A stretch of DNA of 40,218 nt. Origin: Escherichia phage CLB_P1. The notes under the pieces were generated by a model. That model made no database searches and was not told the DNA's origin. It worked only from the letters and a program-made list of their open reading frames with translations. Position numbers and translations under genes: made by a program. This document shows positions 5,388 to 26,028 of the stretch, piece after piece (positions within the stretch are counted from its first letter, which is position 1; the number at the start of each line of letters is the position of its first letter). The DNA is taken from sequence record KC109329.1; one strand, written 5' to 3'.

Positions 5388-5461
5388 CAGACCTACAGTT
5401 ACTGGCCTTGTGGCTAGGAGCACTCGCAGTATTCACTTTAATCCAACGCAGAAGAGGTTAA

Positions 5462-6005: not shown

Positions 6006-7057
6006 TGACAACTATTAAAACCAACCCACACCGCGCTGTAGATTACTCTGAGTCTGGCGTTAAGAAGGCACTGGAAGCAGCCGGGTCTCTGGAAGCTGAA
6101 GTGAAGTACGATGGTGTCCGGTTGAATCTTCCGGTATTCCCTACTGGTGAGACTCAATGGTTGAGCCGTGAGTCTAAACATCTCCCAGCACTTGAGTGGC
6201 TGTCAGTCCTTACCAACATCGACAACATCGTTGAGGACCAGCAAAAAGCCAGCGACTGGCGATGGTTCCTGAAGCAGGCTGGCTACGAAGGCACTGGCCT
6301 GATGATTGACGGTGAGGTCATGGTAAAGGGAGTGGACTTCAATACGTCTTCAGGTCTCATCCGAACGAAGTGGGTAAATCAAAAGAACTTTGAGTTTTCC
6401 ACTGGTGAGCACTGGGGTAAGAGCTGGAAGAAAGAGAATCTACCGTTCTGTCTTGACAAGAAGTACATCAAGGTAGTCGTCTACGGTATCGTGGACCTTA
6501 ACGTCATCCTCGACCCCAAGGCCGAAGGTCCTATCCATAGCGTCACCCGCCTGAAGGCCGAAGCTATCGTCCCTCTCCTCCAGAAATACTTCCCGGAAAT
6601 CGAATGGGTTCTTTCGGAGTCACACACGGTCTTTGACCTTGAGTCGCTCCAATCCCTGTACGAAGAGAAGCGAGCAGAAGGTCACGAAGGACTGGTGGTG
6701 AAAGACCCACTGGGCAAGTGGAAGCGTGGCAAGAAGTCAGGCATGTGGAAAATGAAGCCGAGCGAAGAGGCAGACGGCCATGTTGTTCGTCCGGTATGGG
6801 GAACGGAAGGTCTAGCCAACGAAGGTCTGGTAATTGGCTTTGACGTTATGCTTGAGAACGGGATGGAGGTCTCCGCAACTAACATTAGTCGCGCCCTTAT
6901 GTCCGAGTTCACCGAGAACGTCAAGTCGGACCCAGATTACTACAAAGGGTGGGCCTGTCAGATTACCTACATGGAGGAGACACCAGATGGAAGTTTGCGA
7001 CATCCGTCATTCGACCAATGGCGAGGTACTGAGGACAATCCTACAGTCAAGATTTAA
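6005..7057 (+). CDS. ATP-dependent DNA ligase (T7 gene 1.3 homolog)
   Basis: IKTNP, adenylation motif KYDGVR, EGHEGLVVKDP, KRGKKSGMWKMKP, GWACQITYMEETPDGSLRHPSF; start taken at the ATG overlapping the upstream stop (TAATG), not the track's 5990. Confidence 0.93.
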   Translation: MTTIKTNPHRAVDYSESGVKKALEAAGSLEAEVKYDGVRLNLPVFPTGETQWLSRESKHLPALEWLSVLTNIDNIVEDQQKASDWRWFLKQAGYEGTGLMIDGEVMVKGVDFNTSSGLIRTKWVNQKNFEFSTGEHWGKSWKKENLPFCLDKKYIKVVVYGIVDLNVILDPKAEGPIHSVTRLKAEAIVPLLQKYFPEIEWVLSESHTVFDLESLQSLYEEKRAEGHEGLVVKDPLGKWKRGKKSGMWKMKPSEEADGHVVRPVWGTEGLANEGLVIGFDVMLENGMEVSATNISRALMSEFTENVKSDPDYYKGWACQITYMEETPDGSLRHPSFDQWRGTEDNPTVKI

Positions 7058-7091
7058 GGTTGACCGGACGGCTCCTTCTGGAGTCGCCAAC

Positions 7092-7448
7092 ATGAAGGGT
7101 AAGCACTTAGGCTATCGACGCAAGGACGGCTACTGGGTTATAAGCACAACAAAGGGTCAACTCCTTGCTCACAGGGTAGTCTGGGAACTAACTCATGGTC
7201 CGATACCTGAAGGAATGGTGATTGACCATATAAACCGCGACCCTTCTGATAACCGCATTGAGAACTTACGATGTGTAACCCAGGCAGTGAACCTAACAAA
7301 CGTTCCCGTCCGTAGCCACTGCAAGTCTGGTGAGAAGTATGTGAACTTTGAGCCAAGGACTGGTAGATGGCAACTTCGGATAAAGCGTAAGTCATATGGT
7401 ACGTTCGACACCATAGCTGAGGCGGTAGCCTTGAGAGATTCATTATGA
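7092..7448 (+). CDS. HNH homing endonuclease (free-standing)
   Basis: HGPIPEGMVIDHINRDPSDNRIENLRCVTQAVN motif; lies immediately after the ligase gene. Confidence 0.8.
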   Translation: MKGKHLGYRRKDGYWVISTTKGQLLAHRVVWELTHGPIPEGMVIDHINRDPSDNRIENLRCVTQAVNLTNVPVRSHCKSGEKYVNFEPRTGRWQLRIKRKSYGTFDTIAEAVALRDSL

Positions 7449-12567: not shown

Positions 12568-12614
12568 TCTAGACTCAAGGTCATTCACATTGAGTGGCCT
12601 TTATGATTAGACTA
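12568..12614 (+). promoter_or_regulatory. Conserved stem-loop, candidate RNase III processing site (R4.7-like)
   Basis: AGACTCAAGGTCAT-loop-GTGGCCTTTATGATTA; same stem as at 5483 and 36254 with a different loop. Confidence 0.4.
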
Positions 12615-12629
12615 AACGGAGGATTAACC

Positions 12630-13031
12630 ATGTTTGATTGCATTGAGTGGACCGGGTGTCGAGATAGTTTCGGCTACGGTATGCGAAAGGTCAACGGGAA
12701 GGTCCGTAGACTGCATCTGATAGCCTTCGAGGAGGCGAATGGTCCGATACCAGAGGGAATGGTCGTGAGGCACAAATGCGACAACCCAGCGTGCTACAAT
12801 CCAGAACACTTGGAGCTGGGGACAAGGGCTGAGAACAATCACGATAGAGACATTAGAGGTCGAACCGCTAAAGGCGTGCGACATGGAAGCTCTAAGCTTA
12901 CACCTGAAATAGTACAAGAGGCCAAGGTGCTTTACGCAGGAGGTGGCTGGACTCACCGCTCCTTAGGTAAGAAGTATGGAGTGGGTCACCGCACACTGGC
13001 TAGAGCAATTGGAGGAGAAACATGGACTTAA
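12630..13031 (+). CDS. HNH homing endonuclease (free-standing, between primase/helicase and DNA polymerase)
   Basis: NGPIPEGMVVRHKCDNPACYNPEHLELGTRAENNHD motif; GGAGGA RBS 7 nt before ATG at 12630. Confidence 0.8.
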   Translation: MFDCIEWTGCRDSFGYGMRKVNGKVRRLHLIAFEEANGPIPEGMVVRHKCDNPACYNPEHLELGTRAENNHDRDIRGRTAKGVRHGSSKLTPEIVQEAKVLYAGGGWTHRSLGKKYGVGHRTLARAIGGETWT

Positions 13032-15034: not shown

Positions 15035-15632
15035 TAACATCATGGTGCACATTAAATCTGGTGAACTCGGTGAACTCCTAATGGGACAATACCGAGCCAA
15101 GCCATAGGGAGGATGTATGAGAGGCAAGAAGTTAATTCTTGAGGCCACTGAGACTGGCTGCATAATCCCTACGTCACATAAATTGAATCAGGATGGATAC
15201 TTCCGAAAGAGGACTAACGGTGTCCTTGAGATGTATCATAGAACTGTATGGATTAAAGCTAATGGTCCAATACCTGAAGGTTTCGAAGTAGACCACAAGT
15301 GTCGTAATAGAGCTTGTTGCAACGTCGAACATCTACAAGTATTATACCGGGACTCACACTTAGTCAAGACCAACAAAGAGCGATACGCTGCTAGGAAGCT
15401 AGAAGCACGAGACTACTGGGTAGAGACTGGGTGTACTGGAACGAAGTTAGCCGAAGTATTCAATGTGTCGTTCTCAGCCGCCTGTGGGTGGATTAGAGAG
15501 TGGAAGGCGTAGAGACTATCCGAAAGGAGTAGGGCCGTGGGTGAGATTCCCACGTAACCCGAAGCGCCAGACAGTCACCTCAAAGACTGATGATATAGTC
15601 CGACACTTCCAGTAATGGGAGAATACAGAAAG
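15035..15632 (+). mobile_element. Putative group I intron with embedded HNH homing endonuclease gene, interrupting the DNA polymerase gene
   Basis: Exon ends in U (15034); exon GUGCAU pairs with GUGCAC at 15045-15050 (U-G at the splice site); G at 15632; joining 15034 to 15633 restores the conserved polymerase C-terminus in frame. Confidence 0.65.
15117..15512 (+). CDS. HNH homing endonuclease encoded within the polymerase intervening sequence
   Basis: NGPIPEGFEVDHKCRNRACCNVEHL motif; RBS GGGAGG before ATG; lower GC than flanking sequence by eye. Confidence 0.85.
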   Translation: MRGKKLILEATETGCIIPTSHKLNQDGYFRKRTNGVLEMYHRTVWIKANGPIPEGFEVDHKCRNRACCNVEHLQVLYRDSHLVKTNKERYAARKLEARDYWVETGCTGTKLAEVFNVSFSAACGWIREWKA

Positions 15633-20434: not shown

Positions 20435-21322
20435 ATGTCTCAATCAGTTTATGCCGAGTTCGGCGTTAGCTCTAATGCAATCACTGGTTCCGTTGAGGAC
20501 CTGAACGAACACCAAAAGTCTATGCTTGAACAGGACGTAGCTGTTCGTGATGGTGACGACGCTATTACCTTCAAGCAACTGGAAGCCGAAAACGAAGAGG
20601 CTACCGAAGAAGACGAGAACGTCGAAGAGGCTGAAGGTGAAGAAGAAGACCACGAGTCCGATGACGAAGAGTCTGAGACCGATGGTGAGCAGCCTGAGTT
20701 CATTGAACTGGGTGATGCACCGAAAGAGCTGACCGAAAGTGTCACCGCTCTGGATGAAAACGAAGCTGCATTCGACGACATGGTGTCTTCTGCTGTGGAA
20801 GCTGGCAAGGTCACTGCTGATGAAATTACCGCTATCAAGGCTGAATACGCCAAGGACGGTAAGCTGTCTGACGCATCCTACGCTAAGTTGCAGGAAGCAG
20901 GTTACACCAAGCGTTTCGTAGATTCGTTTGTCCGTGGTCAGGAAGCTCTGGCTGAACAGTATGCTGCTGGAGTGGTTCGCTACGCTGGTGGAGCTGAACA
21001 GTTTAACCGCATTCTGTCTCACCTTGAGTCAACCGACCCGTCAACTCGTGAGGCACTGGAAGCTGCTATCGTTCGTAAGGACATTGCGACTACCAAAGCT
21101 CTGCTGAATCTGGCTGGCAAGACTCTTGGTAAAGCTGTAGGCGTTAAACCTCAGCGTACCATCACCAATCAGGCTAAACCTGTGGTAGCACCTAAGGCTC
21201 CTAAGACCGAAGCATTCAGCTCTAAGGCTGACATGATTAAGGCTATGAGTGACCCGCGATACCTGCGTGACGCTAAGTACACGATGGAAGTGCGCGCTAA
21301 GGTAGCTGCATCGAGCCTGTAG
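20435..21322 (+). CDS. Capsid assembly (scaffolding) protein, T7 gene 9 homolog
   Basis: 295-aa highly acidic protein with an EEDE-rich region between portal and capsid genes. Confidence 0.88.
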   Translation: MSQSVYAEFGVSSNAITGSVEDLNEHQKSMLEQDVAVRDGDDAITFKQLEAENEEATEEDENVEEAEGEEEDHESDDEESETDGEQPEFIELGDAPKELTESVTALDENEAAFDDMVSSAVEAGKVTADEITAIKAEYAKDGKLSDASYAKLQEAGYTKRFVDSFVRGQEALAEQYAAGVVRYAGGAEQFNRILSHLESTDPSTREALEAAIVRKDIATTKALLNLAGKTLGKAVGVKPQRTITNQAKPVVAPKAPKTEAFSSKADMIKAMSDPRYLRDAKYTMEVRAKVAASSL

Positions 21323-21323
21323 G

Positions 21324-21346
21324 ACTAAACTATCACTATAGGGAGA
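21324..21346 (+). promoter_or_regulatory. Phage RNAP promoter, best consensus copy (ACTAAACTATCACTATA/GGGAGA), phi10 equivalent
   Basis: Full core plus GGGAGA initiating sequence, followed by an AU-rich leader and strong RBS before the capsid gene. Confidence 0.75.
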
Positions 21347-21448: not shown

Positions 21449-22498
21449 ATGGCAAACGTTCCGGGTCAGAAAATTGGTACAGACCAAGGTAAAGGCAAAT
21501 CCAGTTCCGACGCTCTGGCGTTGTTCCTGAAGGTCTTTGCTGGTGAAGTCCTGACCGCATTCACTCGCCGCTCTGTAACGGCTGACAAGCATATTGTCCG
21601 TACCATTCAGAACGGTAAGTCTGCTCAGTTCCCGGTCATGGGTCGCACCTCTGGTGTGTATCTGGCTCCCGGTGAGCGACTGTCCGATAAGCGCAAAGGT
21701 ATCAAACATACCGAGAAAGTGATTACCATTGACGGTCTGCTGACTGCTGATGTGATGATTTTCGACATTGAAGACGCGATGAACCACTATGACGTGGCTG
21801 GTGAGTATTCCAACCAGCTAGGTGAAGCTCTGGCTATCGCTGCTGATGGTGCGGTTTTAGCTGAAATGGCTATCCTGTGCAACCTTCCGGCTGCATCCAA
21901 CGAGAACATCGCTGGTCTTGGCAAAGCGTCTGTGCTGGAAGTTGGTACTAAAGCCGACCTGAACACTCCGGCTAAGCTGGGTGAAGCAATCATCGGTCAA
22001 CTGACCATTGCTCGTGCGAAGCTGACATCCAACTACGTTCCTGCTGGCGACCGTTACTTCTACACCACGCCGGACAACTACTCTGCAATCCTCGCGGCTC
22101 TGATGCCGAACGCTGCTAACTATGCTGCGCTGATTGATCCAGAGACTGGTAACATCCGTAACGTAATGGGCTTCGTGGTTGTTGAAGTTCCACACTTGAC
22201 TCAGGGTGGTGCTGGTGAAACTCGTGGTGATGACGGCATCACTATCGCTTCCGGTCAGAAGCACGCCTTCCCGGCTACTGCTACTGGTGATGTTAAAGTT
22301 GCGCTGGACAACGTTGTGGGCCTGTTCTCTCACCGTTCTGCCGTAGGCACTGTTAAGCTGCGTGATTTGGCGCTGGAACGTGACCGTGACGTCGATGCTC
22401 AGGGCGACCTGATTGTTGGTAAGTACGCTATGGGTCACGGTGGTCTGCGTCCAGAAGCAGCAGGCGCACTGGTTTTCACAGCAGCGTCAGCGGGTTAA
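21449..22498 (+). CDS. Major capsid protein 10A
   Basis: GTDQGKG, LALFLKVF.GEVLTAF.R, GKSAQFPV.GRT, KHTEKVITIDGLLTADV, NHYDV, MPNAANYAALIDPE.G.IRNVMGF.VVEVPHLT.GGAG, GHGGLRPEAAGA as in T7 gp10A. Confidence 0.97.
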   Translation: MANVPGQKIGTDQGKGKSSSDALALFLKVFAGEVLTAFTRRSVTADKHIVRTIQNGKSAQFPVMGRTSGVYLAPGERLSDKRKGIKHTEKVITIDGLLTADVMIFDIEDAMNHYDVAGEYSNQLGEALAIAADGAVLAEMAILCNLPAASNENIAGLGKASVLEVGTKADLNTPAKLGEAIIGQLTIARAKLTSNYVPAGDRYFYTTPDNYSAILAALMPNAANYAALIDPETGNIRNVMGFVVVEVPHLTQGGAGETRGDDGITIASGQKHAFPATATGDVKVALDNVVGLFSHRSAVGTVKLRDLALERDRDVDAQGDLIVGKYAMGHGGLRPEAAGALVFTAASAG

Positions 22499-22761
22499 CG
22501 ACCTTTAAGGCCCTCTCTACCGAGGGTCCTACCTTAGAGACGTATAGTTCTACGGTGGGAACCAGCTTGAAGGTTGACTTCCCTGAGCTTTCAGATGTGA
22601 CCGACTGGTCACTGCTTGATGTTGCTACGCCTGATGGTGTTAGTTACTCCCGTAGAACCAACAGTCTCTACTTCAGGGCCACCTCTGGCGTGGAAGGTCT
22701 AGTGATTGTTGAGTATGACGGTTCGCCTGTGCGTTCCTTCAACGTATCTTTCACAAACTAA
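21449..22761 (+). CDS. Minor capsid protein 10B made by a -1 ribosomal frameshift at G GUU UUC (22471-22477)
   Basis: -1 frame is open from the slippery site to TAA at 22759-22761 (94-aa extension); heptamer is identical to the T7 gene 10 frameshift site. Confidence 0.6.
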
Positions 22762-22764
22762 TTG

Positions 22765-22806
22765 AAACCCCTTGGGTGCCTTCGGGTGCTTGAGGGGTTT
22801 TTTTTG
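22765..22806 (+). terminator. Intrinsic terminator after the capsid gene (T-phi equivalent)
   Basis: AAACCCCTTGGGTGCCTTCGGGTGCTTGAGGGGTTT hairpin followed by TTTTTTTT; closely resembles the T7 T-phi hairpin. Confidence 0.85.
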
Positions 22807-22820
22807 CTTAAGGAGGGCCT

Positions 22821-23387
22821 ATGGCTCAATACATTCCACTAAATGCTAACGATGACTTAGATGCCATCAACGATATGTTAGCTGCTATCGGTGAACCAGC
22901 AGTCCTACAGCTTGACGAAGGTAACGCTGACGTCTCGAACGCTCAACGTATCCTGCATCGTGTCAATCGTCAGGTCCAAGCTAAAGGCTGGAACTTTAAC
23001 ATCAACGAAGCTGCTGTCCTGACGCCTGATGTCCAAGACAACAGGATTCGATTCCTGCCGTCTTACCTTCGGGTCATGACTGCTGGTGCTACCAGTTACT
23101 ACAGCAACATGGGGGGCTATCTCTATGACCTGTCCACTCAGTCCACGACATTCACTGGACCAATTACAGTCGAACTGGTGGAGATGAAACCGTTCGCTGA
23201 GATGCCTGTAGTATTCCGTGACTACATCGTTACCAAGGCCAGCCGTGAGTTCAACGCTAAGTTCTTCGGTAGCCCAGAGTCTGAACTGTACCTTCGTGAG
23301 CAGGAAGCAGAACTCTATCAGCAGGTCATGGAATACGAGATGGACACTGGTCGCTACAACATGATGTCCGACATCGGGAGGGACTAA
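22821..23387 (+). CDS. Tail tubular protein A (T7 gene 11 homolog)
   Basis: A.NDILA.IGEP, NA.RIL...NRQ.Q..GW.FNI.E, GGY.YD...QS, VTKASR.FN..FFG.PE, MEYEMD.G.YNM as in T7 gp11. Confidence 0.9.
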   Translation: MAQYIPLNANDDLDAINDMLAAIGEPAVLQLDEGNADVSNAQRILHRVNRQVQAKGWNFNINEAAVLTPDVQDNRIRFLPSYLRVMTAGATSYYSNMGGYLYDLSTQSTTFTGPITVELVEMKPFAEMPVVFRDYIVTKASREFNAKFFGSPESELYLREQEAELYQQVMEYEMDTGRYNMMSDIGRD

Positions 23388-23614
23388 TGGCTAGTCACAA
23401 CCTGAAGATTCACCGCCGACACTTTGGCCCGGTACAACTAGGTCTAAAGACAGCAGAGCTGAGACTTAACGACCGGGACTTTAAGGTTGGCGACTGGCTT
23501 ATCCTGAATGAGTGGGACAACGGGTATACTGGACAACAGGTAGCGCGTAAGGTTATCCACATTGCTGACGTTGGTGACATCGCTGAAGGATACGTCCTAA
23601 TGAGTATGATTTAA
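23387..23614 (+). CDS. Hypothetical 75-aa protein between tail tubular genes A and B (possible ASCH/PUA-like small domain)
   Basis: ATG overlaps gp11 stop; no counterpart between T7 genes 11 and 12; domain guess is from general resemblance only. Confidence 0.5.
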   Translation: MASHNLKIHRRHFGPVQLGLKTAELRLNDRDFKVGDWLILNEWDNGYTGQQVARKVIHIADVGDIAEGYVLMSMI

Positions 23615-23623
23615 GGAGGGCCT

Positions 23624-25981
23624 ATGCCGCTTATCACACAAAGCATAAAAAATCTTAAGGGTGGCATTAGCCAACAGCCTGACATCCTGAGGTTCTCAGA
23701 CCAAGGCGAGGAGCAAGTTAACTGCTGGTCATCAGAGAGTGATGGCCTCCAGAAGCGTCCACCTACAGTCTTCAAGAGACGTCTTAACATCGACGTTGGG
23801 AGTAACCCTAAGTTCCACCTGATTAACCGTGACGAGCATGAGCAGTATTACATCGTGTTCAATGGGTCCAACATTCAGGTAGTTGACTTGAGTGGTAATC
23901 AATACTCAGTTTCCGGTGCGGTAGATTACGTTACGTCGTCCAACCCGAGAGATGACATCCGTGTCGTTACTGTGGCAGACTATACGTTCGTCGTTAACCG
24001 TAAGGTTGTCGTTAAAGGTGGAAGCGAGAAGTCACACTCTGGTTATAATCGTAAAGCTCGTGCTTTAATTAACCTGCGTGGTGGACAGTATGGTCGCACC
24101 CTTAAGGTAGGAATCAACGGAGGAGTTAAGGTTTCGCATAAGTTGCCAGCAGGTAATGATGCCGAGAATGACCCTCCTAAGGTTGATGCTCAGGCTATCG
24201 GTGCAGCTCTAAGAGACCTTCTTGTTGCTGCTTACCCTACCTTCACGTTCGACCTTGGGTCTGGCTTCCTGTTAATCACTGCCCCTTCAGGTACTGACAT
24301 TAACTCAGTGGAGACGGAGGATGGATACGCTAACCAGCTAATCAGCCCAGTCCTCGACACGGTGCAAACAATCTCTAAGTTGCCTCTTGCAGCTCCAAAT
24401 GGGTACATCATTAAGATTCAAGGTGAGACCAACAGTAGCGCCGATGAATACTACGTGATGTATGACTCCAACACTAAGACGTGGAAGGAGACAGTAGAGC
24501 CGGGAGTAGTCACTGGGTTCGATAACACCACAATGCCGCATGCTCTGGTGAGACAATCTGACGGCTCCTTTGAGTTCAAGACTCTGGACTGGTCTAAGCG
24601 TGGTGCTGGTAATGATGACACAAACCCTATGCCTAGCTTCGTGGATGCTACGATTAACGATGTGTTCTTCTACAGGAACAGGCTAGGTTTCTTGTCAGGC
24701 GAGAACGTAATCATGAGCCGTTCAGCCAGCTACTTTGCGTTCTTCCCTAAGAGTGTGGCGACACTGAGCGATGATGATCCTATTGACGTAGCTGTAAGTC
24801 ATCCTAGAATCTCAATCCTTAAGTATGCCGTTCCGTTTAGCGAGCAGCTACTACTTTGGTCGGATGAGGTGCAGTTCGTGATGACAAGCTCAGGGGTCCT
24901 TACCTCGAAGTCTATCCAGCTTGATGTAGGCTCAGAGTTTGCCTTAGGAGATAATGCCAGACCGTTCGCTGTAGGACGCTCAGTCTTCTTCTCAGCACCT
25001 CGTGGGTCATTCACCAGCATTAAGCGATACTTCGCTGTAGCAGATGTGTCTGACGTGAAGGATGCCGATGATACCACTGGTCACGTACTGTCCTATATCC
25101 CTAACGGGGTGTTTGACATTCAGGGAACAGGAACTGAGAACTACATCTGCGTCAACTCTACAGGTGCATACAACCGAATCTACATCTACAAGTTCTTGTT
25201 TAAGGACGGCGTACAGCTTCAAGCCTCTTGGTCGCACTGGGAGTTCCATAAAGACGATAAGATTCTGGCATCTGCGTCTATTGGCTCTACCATGTTCATC
25301 GTTCGTCAGCACCAAGGTGGCGTGGATATTGAGCACCTTAAGTTCATCAAGGAGGCAACTGACTTTACGTCAGAGCCATATAGACTCCACGTTGACTCCA
25401 AGGTGTCTATGGTTATCCCAATTGGCTCATATAACGCTGACACCTATAAGACTACGGTGGACATTGGTACTGCTTATGGCGGCAACGCTCCGTCTCCCGG
25501 TCGGTACTATCTGATTGACAGTCAGGGTGCTTATGTAGACCTTGGTGATCTGACTAGCACCTCCACTGTTGTTACCGTTAATGGCGATTGGTCAGGACGT
25601 ACAGTGTTCATCGGAAGGGCTTACCTGATGTCATACAAGTTCTCAAGGTTCCTTATTAAGATTGAAGATGATAGTGGAACTCAGTCTGAAGACACTGGTC
25701 GTCTACAGCTTCGTCGTGCTTGGGTAAACTACAAGGACACTGGTGCTCTTAGACTCATTGTCAGAAACGGTGAGAGGGAGTTCGTGAACACCTTCAACGG
25801 GTATACCCTTGGTCAGCAAACCATAGGCACTACCAACATTGGGGATGGTCAGTATCGCTTCGCTATGAATGGTAACGCATTAACCACGAGTCTAACCTTA
25901 GAGTCCGACTATCCTACCCCAGTGTACATCGTTGGATGTGGCTGGGAGGCTTCATACGCTAAGAAAGCTCGTTCCGTCTAA
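23624..25981 (+). CDS. Tail tubular protein B (T7 gene 12 homolog)
   Basis: 785 aa following gp11 with RBS AAGGAGG; length and position match T7 gp12. Confidence 0.92.
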   Translation: MPLITQSIKNLKGGISQQPDILRFSDQGEEQVNCWSSESDGLQKRPPTVFKRRLNIDVGSNPKFHLINRDEHEQYYIVFNGSNIQVVDLSGNQYSVSGAVDYVTSSNPRDDIRVVTVADYTFVVNRKVVVKGGSEKSHSGYNRKARALINLRGGQYGRTLKVGINGGVKVSHKLPAGNDAENDPPKVDAQAIGAALRDLLVAAYPTFTFDLGSGFLLITAPSGTDINSVETEDGYANQLISPVLDTVQTISKLPLAAPNGYIIKIQGETNSSADEYYVMYDSNTKTWKETVEPGVVTGFDNTTMPHALVRQSDGSFEFKTLDWSKRGAGNDDTNPMPSFVDATINDVFFYRNRLGFLSGENVIMSRSASYFAFFPKSVATLSDDDPIDVAVSHPRISILKYAVPFSEQLLLWSDEVQFVMTSSGVLTSKSIQLDVGSEFALGDNARPFAVGRSVFFSAPRGSFTSIKRYFAVADVSDVKDADDTTGHVLSYIPNGVFDIQGTGTENYICVNSTGAYNRIYIYKFLFKDGVQLQASWSHWEFHKDDKILASASIGSTMFIVRQHQGGVDIEHLKFIKEATDFTSEPYRLHVDSKVSMVIPIGSYNADTYKTTVDIGTAYGGNAPSPGRYYLIDSQGAYVDLGDLTSTSTVVTVNGDWSGRTVFIGRAYLMSYKFSRFLIKIEDDSGTQSEDTGRLQLRRAWVNYKDTGALRLIVRNGEREFVNTFNGYTLGQQTIGTTNIGDGQYRFAMNGNALTTSLTLESDYPTPVYIVGCGWEASYAKKARSV

Positions 25982-26005
25982 CTTATTGATTGGCCTATAG
26001 ATTCA

Positions 26006-26028
26006 CCTTAACTATCACTATAGGGACT
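26006..26028 (+). promoter_or_regulatory. Phage RNAP promoter (CCTTAACTATCACTATA/GGGACT)
   Basis: Consensus core; phi13 position. Confidence 0.65.

Follow-up and report, generated by a model that had tools for sequence, protein, structure and literature searches.

A DUF3850 gene of the ASCH superfamily between the tail tubular protein genes of Escherichia phage CLB_P1

Introduction

What is encoded between the genes for the tail tubular proteins A (gp11) and B (gp12) of Escherichia phage CLB_P1? This phage is a T7-type podovirus of the genus Kayfunavirus (Autographiviridae, Studiervirinae) and is K1F-like. In the analyzed stretch of its DNA (sequence record KC109329.1; 40,218 nt, called the window in the following and numbered from its first letter), a small open reading frame (ORF) of 75 amino acids (aa) is located at 23387..23614 on the plus strand. 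Its location raises the questions whether the ORF is a gene at all, whether its product belongs to the tail and, if not, which function it might have. The analysis showed that the ORF is a genuine, selectively maintained accessory gene of Kayfunavirus. There is hardly any doubt that its product is a stand-alone, minimal beta-barrel of the ASCH superfamily, belonging to DUF3850, and this protein is very probably non-structural and dispensable. The gene is already known and ordinary and is found in the databases under several names. The value that remains lies in the function of DUF3850, not in the window gene as such.

Family and fold of the 75-aa protein

The ORF starts with ATG, and its translation in the ORF list is identical to the sequence given in a preliminary description of the window. 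The product has 8.6 kDa and an isoelectric point (pI) of 6.9. An ASCH- or PUA-like beta-barrel had been guessed in that description, with DUF3850 named among the candidates and a comparison with Pfam profiles recommended as a check. This comparison revealed matches to both DUF3850 and ASCH above the curated cut-offs. DUF3850 (PF12961) was matched with E=4.8e-19 and 68.8 bits (cut-off 22.9), residues 4-73 covering positions 2-76 of the 77 profile positions. ASCH (PF04266), which belongs to the PUA-like clan, was matched with E=7.9e-6 and 26.9 bits (cut-off 21.2), and EVE and YTH were also among the hits. The match to PHROG 986 had a value of 5.8e-35. In the PDB, 3IUW was the only sequence match, with 1.5e-10 for the single protein and 5.9e-21 for the profile. 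The guess was thus confirmed by Pfam, PHROG 986 and 3IUW. The 75-aa protein has the fold of this solved DUF3850 member as well as the PUA-like beta-barrel of the ASCH superfamily. 3IUW is a structural-genomics entry of an 'activating signal cointegrator' of E. faecalis, which has the motifs H-x-L-K, K-T-x-E-x-R-x-N-D-R and G-D in common with the window protein but, unlike the window gene, is bacterial or prophage-borne. No functional study of 3IUW was found in the literature. In BFVD, only other phage DUF3850/ASCH proteins were matched, with gene 11.05 of Citrobacter phage CR44b at the top. NCBIfam gave no match, and the defence profiles of PADLOC-DB gave no significant one (only PDC-M07B, E=0.012, 13.7 bits).

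The octapeptide of ASCH proteins, G-x-K-x-x-[E/T/S]-x-R, is present as G19-L-K21-T-A-E24-L-R26 and is of the 'GKER' type. Conservation was determined in 156 family representatives with a mutual identity of at most 50%. H4, L6, K7, K21, E24, R26, N28, D29, R30, G35, D36, L40, E42 and G49 are each conserved in 92-99% of them, and all 14 residues are found in the window protein, which shows no departure from the family consensus. K21, E24, R26, N28, D29 and R30 reach 94-99% each (K21 and E24 96-97%). The family comprises 16,944 cluster representatives at E<=1e-3 and 7,412 at E<=1e-10, with clusters formed at 50% identity. It becomes visible only by exhaustive profile search; a word-indexed homologue search gave only 30 close relatives. 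DUF3850 is among the most widespread small phage-enriched domains and has a solved structure and enzyme-like invariant residues.

The gene is annotated as 'RNA-binding protein' in RefSeq for LM33_P1 (YP_009324512.1) and in the phages Vec13 and ST31, as 'unknown product' in EcoDS1, as gene 11.05 in CR44b and as hypothetical in other relatives. 'DUF3850' is used in Providencia phage EPr2 and in EV136_1, and 'activating signal cointegrator' in JSS1. The annotated orthologues of Kayfunavirus are located in the same slot between gp11 and gp12 with the same coupling to the gp11 stop codon. Most of them are 93-97% identical to the window protein; 11.05 of CR44b is the divergent orthologue with 45% identity.

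Gene junctions and evidence for translation

The 75-aa gene is indeed located between the genes for the two tail tubular proteins, as described before, and its ATG overlaps the gp11 stop codon. One base is common to the stop codon TAA (23385-23387) and the following ATG (23387-23389), giving TAATG. The end of gp11 reads GAC ATC GGG AGG GAC TAATG GCT, with GGG AGG GAC TAA as its last codons, and the GGGAGG therein is located 5 nt upstream of the start of the 75-aa gene. At the other end, the stop codon TAA (23612-23614) is followed by GGAGGGCCT and then by the gp12 ATG at 23624. The preliminary description had placed the end of the gene 9 nt before the ribosome binding site (RBS) of gp12. The distance of 9 nt is right, but it leads to the gp12 start codon; the RBS overlaps the stop codon of the 75-aa gene and falls within these 9 nt. 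The statement that gp12 directly follows gp11 in T7 also proved correct, the two genes being separated there by a spacer of 23 nt without an ORF.

Evidence for translation comes from the coding sequence of gp11. Its product ends with DIGRD, and the Gly-Arg pair is encoded by GGG AGG or GGG AGA in every genome in which the next ATG overlaps the gp11 stop codon, but by GGT CGA in every genome in which gp12 has its own RBS in a spacer. This synonymous covariation was seen at 23370-23384 of the window in comparison with the loci L005, L015, L016, L019 and L021-L025. The embedded Shine-Dalgarno sequence is therefore under selection, which supports the translation of the downstream ORF. The mean ratio of nonsynonymous to synonymous substitution rates (dN/dS) was 0.13 over 14 DUF3850 alleles of related genomes, and 0.025 for gp11 in the same genomes. 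The window protein differs from the common allele only at R11 and I57, both of which are variable positions. The GC content of the gene is 48.7% compared with 50.1% for the genome (28th percentile), so that there is no compositional sign of a recent foreign origin.

Among otherwise near-identical alleles, one carries R30L, a change of a family-invariant residue (L011:3567-3791), and one carries D31G (L009:589-813). These alleles may be inactive natural variants or sequencing errors.

Distribution and history of the gp11-gp12 slot

The segment of 1,401 nt with gp11, the DUF3850 gene and gp12 is 100% identical to the unannotated record OZ035730.1 (Kayfunavirus CLBP1) and 92-98% identical to the same 1.4-kb segment of many K1F-like phages of Escherichia, Salmonella, Enterobacter and Citrobacter. 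At a protein identity of at least 80%, the gene was found in about 154 GenBank phage genomes and gp11 in about 217 records, which corresponds to an occupancy of about 70%. Among the IMG/VR loci with both flanking genes, the gene is present in 13 of 24 and missing from the other 11. It is also missing from T7, from K1F, the type species of the genus, from ZG49 and YZ1, and from the Citrobacter phages SH3, SH4 and SH5. In K1F and locus L006, both without the gene, gp11 and the first 200 aa of gp12 are 97-99% identical to those of the window. The gene had been called inserted in the preliminary description. This is true relative to T7 and K1F, but the slot is polymorphic within the genus and the gene is not a fixed feature of it.

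By comparison of positions 23376-23626 of the window with the loci L003, L005, L006, L013, L022, L026, L033 and L034, five states of the slot were distinguished. In state 0 the slot is empty, with a short spacer and an own RBS, and gp11 ends with GGT CGA GAC TAA. State 1, which is found in the window, contains the DUF3850 gene alone. In state 2, which occurs in Hafnia phage yong1 (L033:1133-1573) and E. coli phage KM02, the DUF3850 gene is accompanied by a homing-endonuclease-like Endonuclease_7 ORF (PF02945, E=2.6e-20) before gp12. Phage B1, for which the published table gives a hypothetical ORF of 158 aa at the position of the endonuclease, may be in the same state. State 3 is represented by LI10P1 (L034:~899-1050), where the first 5 DUF3850 codons are fused to the C-terminal half of the endonuclease (MASHN-HETGEVRGLLCRHCN...); this fusion is a deletion scar. 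The Endonuclease_7 arrangement is rare among GenBank phages, with 2 full and 2 remnant records. State 4 is the K1F type, in which the GGGAGG codons are kept and the first 200 aa of gp12 are 97.5-99% identical to those of the carriers. The K1F junction reads ...GGGAGGGACTAATGCCGCTT..., gp12 starting where the 75-aa gene starts in the window, and a precise deletion of this type in CLBP1 or LM33_P1 would restore ...GGGAGGGACTAATGCCG.... The most convincing explanation of the K1F type is that the gene was once present and was later removed exactly, by a deletion between the two RBS-ATG repeats GGAGGGaCTaATG and GGAGGGcCTATG.

The slot coincides with a recombination boundary, at which gp11 is 97-99% identical and the N-terminal 200 aa of gp12 are either 74% or 98% identical. 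The gene is found with both gp12 lineages; in L013, gp12 shows 74% and the DUF3850 protein 84% identity. In CR44b, whose gp11 is 81% identical, the allele 11.05 occupies the same slot (L035:1054-1278, the same as L026:3567-3782). It has kept the termini as well as K21 and R26, but K7 is lost, N28-D29-R30 has become S-I-P and E24 is replaced by D, so that this allele is either decaying or changed in function. The occurrence with both gp12 lineages and the CR44b allele in the same place indicate that the acquisition is old in the genus. Since then, homologous recombination has reassorted the gene, and it has been lost several times. Outside Kayfunavirus, the closest relatives show 57-64% identity and belong to enterobacterial siphoviruses (for example, Erwinia phage Midgardsormr38, Kagunavirus K1ind2, Hafnia phage TS33 and Klebsiella phage 1611E-K2-1) and to the Slopekvirinae podovirus Salmonella phage KKP 3828.

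Kayfunavirus can be regarded as a natural experiment, as it offers near-isogenic carriers, a precise deletion (K1F type), a degenerate allele (CR44b) and a fused remnant (LI10P1). With this series of presence and absence, deletion, complementation or biochemical tests would be easy to set up and to interpret.

An exact repeat of 16 nt, TTAAGGAGGGCCTATG, is located at 22808-22823 and 23611-23626. It comprises the RBS and the start of gp11 and gp12, respectively, and brackets gp11 together with the DUF3850 gene. By chance alone, 40 kb would contain about 0.2 such pairs of 16 nt, and the Shine-Dalgarno consensus raises this expectation. The repeat may be a trace of cassette construction or a coincidence.

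Location among the tail genes

A tail or virion component, or a factor for tail assembly, is what the position of the gene inside the tail-tube pair might suggest, together with its coupling to the gp11 stop codon and its transcription with the late structural genes. However, phages such as K1F, ZG49 and YZ1 manage without the gene, and in the two that were checked (K1F and L006) gp11 and gp12 are nearly identical to those of the carriers. Unlike the virion proteins of the T7 group, the protein is not conserved across T7-like phages, being missing from T7, K1F and about 30% of the Kayfunavirus genomes. In the CR44b record, mass-spectrometry matches are flagged for gp10A, gp11 and gp12 but not for 11.05, which is therefore probably not a part of the tail; this evidence is weak, because a protein of 74 aa is easily missed. 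Band-based mass spectrometry of phage B1 virions is uninformative, since even gp11 and gp12 were missed there.

The homologues in unrelated siphoviruses and myoviruses also argue against a tail function. All inspected homologues outside Kayfunavirus with informative neighbours are located in a replication, recombination or nin-like module. The homologue of Hafnia phage TS33 is found between DNA polymerase and helicase, that of Klebsiella phage VLCpiS13e between helicase and primase, and that of Midgardsormr38 after the replicative helicase and before NinX/NinB. In Listeria phage LP-030-3 it is close to SSB and a resolvase, in phiEf11 to a DNA methyltransferase and YopX, and in Tunavirus BIFF it belongs to an early block with polynucleotide kinase at its end. 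The ASCH barrel and its enzyme-like invariants are a further point against a tail function, and we consider a structural role extremely unlikely. That the gene is found next to tail genes seems to be an accident of the insertion site.

Possible function

The ten near-invariant charged or polar residues within a domain of only 75 residues look like an active site. By analogy with the GKER-type ASCH proteins, which are reported to deacetylate N4-acetylcytidine (ac4C), the protein would most plausibly be a small enzyme directed at nucleic acids or nucleotide bases. A flipped-out or free pyrimidine base, possibly modified, would be held in the cleft formed by G-x-K21-x-x-E24-x-R26, N28-D29-R30, H4, K7, D36 and E42, and the Lys21-Glu24 dyad would hydrolyse an exocyclic N-acyl group. 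N4-acylated cytosine would be the best-precedented substrate, with a DNA or nucleotide modification being equally possible. We propose a small hydrolase with a Lys-Glu dyad (K21/E24) tentatively, with slightly more doubt than confidence. That ac4C in particular is the substrate is doubtful.

The precedent is a recent preprint, according to which the ac4C of tRNA is a substrate that ASCH proteins of either octapeptide class can remove (preprint, February 2026, 10.64898/2026.02.27.708502). In the GKER class, with TthASCH, EOLA1 and TRIP4, the Lys and Glu of the octapeptide are the essential dyad for this reaction (10.64898/2026.02.27.708502). TthASCH (2DP9), EOLA1 and TRIP4-ASCH have the same ASCH beta-barrel and octapeptide as the window protein, and their essential residues correspond to K21 and E24. 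They consist of 120-160+ aa with extra helices, whereas the window protein is a bare barrel of 75 aa, which has H4, K7, N28, D29, R30, D36 and E42 as additional invariants. Tyr14 and Tyr81 position the nucleoside in TthASCH (10.64898/2026.02.27.708502). In the DUF3850 representatives, position 13 is F or Y in 100% and position 69 Y or F in 94% of the sequences; F13 and Y69 of the window protein are candidates for equivalent residues.

Several points weigh against such an enzyme. The 19 ASCH proteins tested in the preprint are bacterial, archaeal or human, and none is from a phage or belongs to DUF3850; ZmASCH and TRIP4-ASCH of the GKER group are inactive on free ac4C, and the authors warn that in some members the deacetylase activity is possibly an evolutionary remnant (10.64898/2026.02.27.708502). 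In the literature on DUF3850, phage ASCH proteins, phage ac4C and PUA-like anti-defence, no experimental work on any DUF3850 protein was found. In the AF2 model, confidence is lowest precisely at residues 21-30 (mean pLDDT 57), the neutral pI gives no obvious basic surface for RNA binding, and the helical insert that carries Glu74 in E. coli YqfB is missing. In fusion proteins, DUF3850 is combined mostly with domains that bind DNA (ParB_N, LexA_DNA_bind, HTH_Crp_2 and MarR_2), and ParB-CTPase-DUF3850 fusions are enriched in prophages (PNAS 2025, PMC12704722). These fusions contain the same phage-enriched domain, which stands alone in the window without a ParB or ParA partner. Together with the DNA-replication neighbours of the homologues, the DNA-binding fusion partners point to DNA rather than tRNA. 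Furthermore, functions in host takeover are not usually expressed late.

The main alternative to the proposed hydrolase is a non-catalytic reader or sponge, in which the barrel binds a modified base, a nucleotide or nucleic acid, or masks modified sites, as a counter-defence factor. It might, for example, sequester methylated mononucleotides such as m6dAMP from Metis or from PUA-Cal-HAD, for which they serve as an alarm. Recognition of modified bases is common in domains of the PUA/ASCH clan, to which the EVE and YTH matches belong. The PUA-like domain of Metis senses m6dAMP from phage-induced degradation of the chromosome and acts during T7 infection (10.1101/2025.11.05.686725), and m6dAMP is likewise sensed by PUA-Cal-HAD (10.64898/2026.01.15.699771). 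A patchy distribution with repeated losses and a degenerate allele, as seen for this gene, is the usual picture for accessory or counter-defence genes, and the authors of the ParB-CTPase survey speculate on an anti-defence role of the ParB-DUF3850 fusions (PMC12704722). On the other hand, the near-invariant residues including the Lys-Glu dyad look catalytic and not merely ligand-binding, the PADLOC match is only marginal, and no phage PUA-like anti-defence protein was found in the literature. We therefore give a mere reader or sponge a limited plausibility. A single-strand-specific ribonuclease like ZmASCH, acting on host or phage RNA late in infection, is less likely still and appears improbable. 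ZmASCH, for which nuclease activity on single-stranded RNA is reported, also has the GKER octapeptide (PMC5615036), and the DUF3850 family goes under the name 'RNA-binding protein' in RefSeq and PHROG. But this label is derived from homology only, ZmASCH (5GUQ) has extra helices and the window protein is about half its size, the neutral pI does not favour binding of RNA, and neighbours and fusion partners in the family are DNA-related. In addition, neither RNA binding nor ribonuclease activity is found in ASCH proteins of the YqfB type (PMC9599836).

A free-nucleoside N4-acetylcytidine amidohydrolase of the YqfB type, which would feed pyrimidine salvage for phage DNA synthesis, is very unlikely. 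The octapeptide of E. coli YqfB (1TE7/9KYF), G19-R-K21-T-I-T24-I-R26, is in register with that of the window protein, and K21 and R26 align in hhalign with Lys21 and Arg26, two of the YqfB catalytic residues Lys21, Thr24, Arg26 and Glu74 (PMC9599836). However, the nucleophile Thr24 is replaced by Glu, as in 96% of the DUF3850 representatives, and the segment with the catalytic acid Glu74 is missing, as there is no counterpart of the helical segment 60-90 of YqfB and the alignment does not extend beyond residue 47/49. It covers 38 columns, with an hhalign probability of only 51%. Because of the changed nucleophile and the missing insert, the identity as a YqfB-type enzyme was rejected. Just as little credence is given to a functionless passenger, that is, a decaying remnant tolerated by the slot or a gene once carried in by a neighbouring homing endonuclease. 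The repeated losses, the loss of the NDR motif and K7 in the CR44b lineage, the single alleles with R30L or D31G, and the Endonuclease_7 ORF in the slot of a few phages with its fused remnant in LI10P1 would fit such a history. Against it stand the dN/dS of 0.13, the family invariants, which are intact in the window and in most alleles, and the retention of the gene by about 70% of the genus; the endonuclease, with its few records, is too rare to explain the prevalence of the gene.

As for the biological role of the proposed hydrolase or of a base-binding barrel, the protein could be a phage counter-measure. It would (a) sequester or disarm methylated or acylated mononucleotide alarms such as m6dAMP, or (b) erase the ac4C34 of elongator tRNA-Met and thereby reprogram late decoding. 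In E. coli, ac4C is found at the wobble position of this tRNA (PMC2500205), and no other tRNA site of ac4C is known there. Such a counter-measure is speculative and rather improbable. If true, DUF3850 would have its first function, and the activity, whether anti-defence or host takeover, would represent a new class in phages.

Transcription context and further features of the window

The features of the locus are listed in Table 1. Ten copies of the phage promoter with the core CTAAACTATCACTATAGGGA were found at 5458, 7504, 8456, 10580, 17490, 20311, 21320, 26002, 33285 and 39450 (plus about 2380). The copy at 26002-26026 is located upstream of the gp13 homologue, in a phi13-like position, and there is none between it and the copy at 21320. 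With promoters only at these two sites and the hairpin in front of gp11, gp11, the 75-aa gene and gp12 must be transcribed by read-through as part of the late operon, as in T7. A scan for sigma-70 promoters and terminators gave counts not above those of shuffled sequences; the one meaningful site is the Tphi-like hairpin in front of gp11. A search of the whole window against Rfam gave no match at gathering scores, so that the gene and its surroundings contain no known RNA element.

Table 1. Features of the gp11-gp12 region of the window and of the late transcription unit
Feature	Position	Strand	Basis and remarks
Phage-RNA-polymerase promoter copy, phi10-like	21320..21344	+	repeat family CTAAACTATCACTATAGGGA; precedes the capsid gene like T7 phi10; heads the late unit that holds the gene
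Tphi-like hairpin with T-run	22764..22801	+	17 pairs; between the capsid gene and gp11; T7 Tphi at the same position
gp11 (tail tubular protein A)	22821..23387	+	188 aa; 50% identity to T7 gp11, 99% to K1F gp11; tail protein in the annotation of LM33_P1
Shine-Dalgarno sequence GGGAGG of the 75-aa gene	23376..23381	+	sequence; within the gp11 codons Gly-Arg
DUF3850/ASCH gene	23387..23614	+	ORF list, profile matches, dN/dS, invariant residues
Putative active or binding site (octapeptide G19-L-K21-T-A-E24-L-R26 plus N28-D29-R30 codons)	23441..23476	+	family conservation, YqfB alignment
Shine-Dalgarno sequence AAGGAGG of gp12	23613..23619	+	sequence; overlaps the stop of the 75-aa gene
gp12 (tail tubular protein B)	23624..25981	+	785 aa; 56% identity to T7 gp12 over the N-terminal 200 aa; tail protein in the annotation of relatives

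The promoter copies can be used for mapping the transcription units. The start of the window differs from the left end of the genome. Within the DUF3850 gene, an antisense ORF of 56 aa is found at 23410-23580 on the minus strand. As all genes identified or annotated in the window and its relatives are located on the plus strand, this ORF is most likely spurious.

The -1 frame of the capsid gene is open at 22423-22761 (+), across the 10A stop codon (22496-22498), and contains an ORF of 68 aa at 22555-22761. The sequence GGTTTTC at 22471-22477 within the capsid gene is read as G GTT TTC, which we take to be the slip site of T7 gene 10. Rather than a gene of its own, the ORF of 68 aa looks like the extension that a frameshift adds to give 10B. 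This region is annotated as an independent hypothetical protein in RefSeq LM33_P1, and 10B is given as a -1 frameshift product in CR44b. Three further ORFs on the plus strand in the early and middle region, at 6987-7448, 12603-13031 and 15117-15512 (153, 142 and 131 aa), have in common a repeat of 37 nt, which encodes (H/N)GPIPEG(M/F)-x-(I/V)-x-H. They look like putative homing endonucleases of the HNH type.

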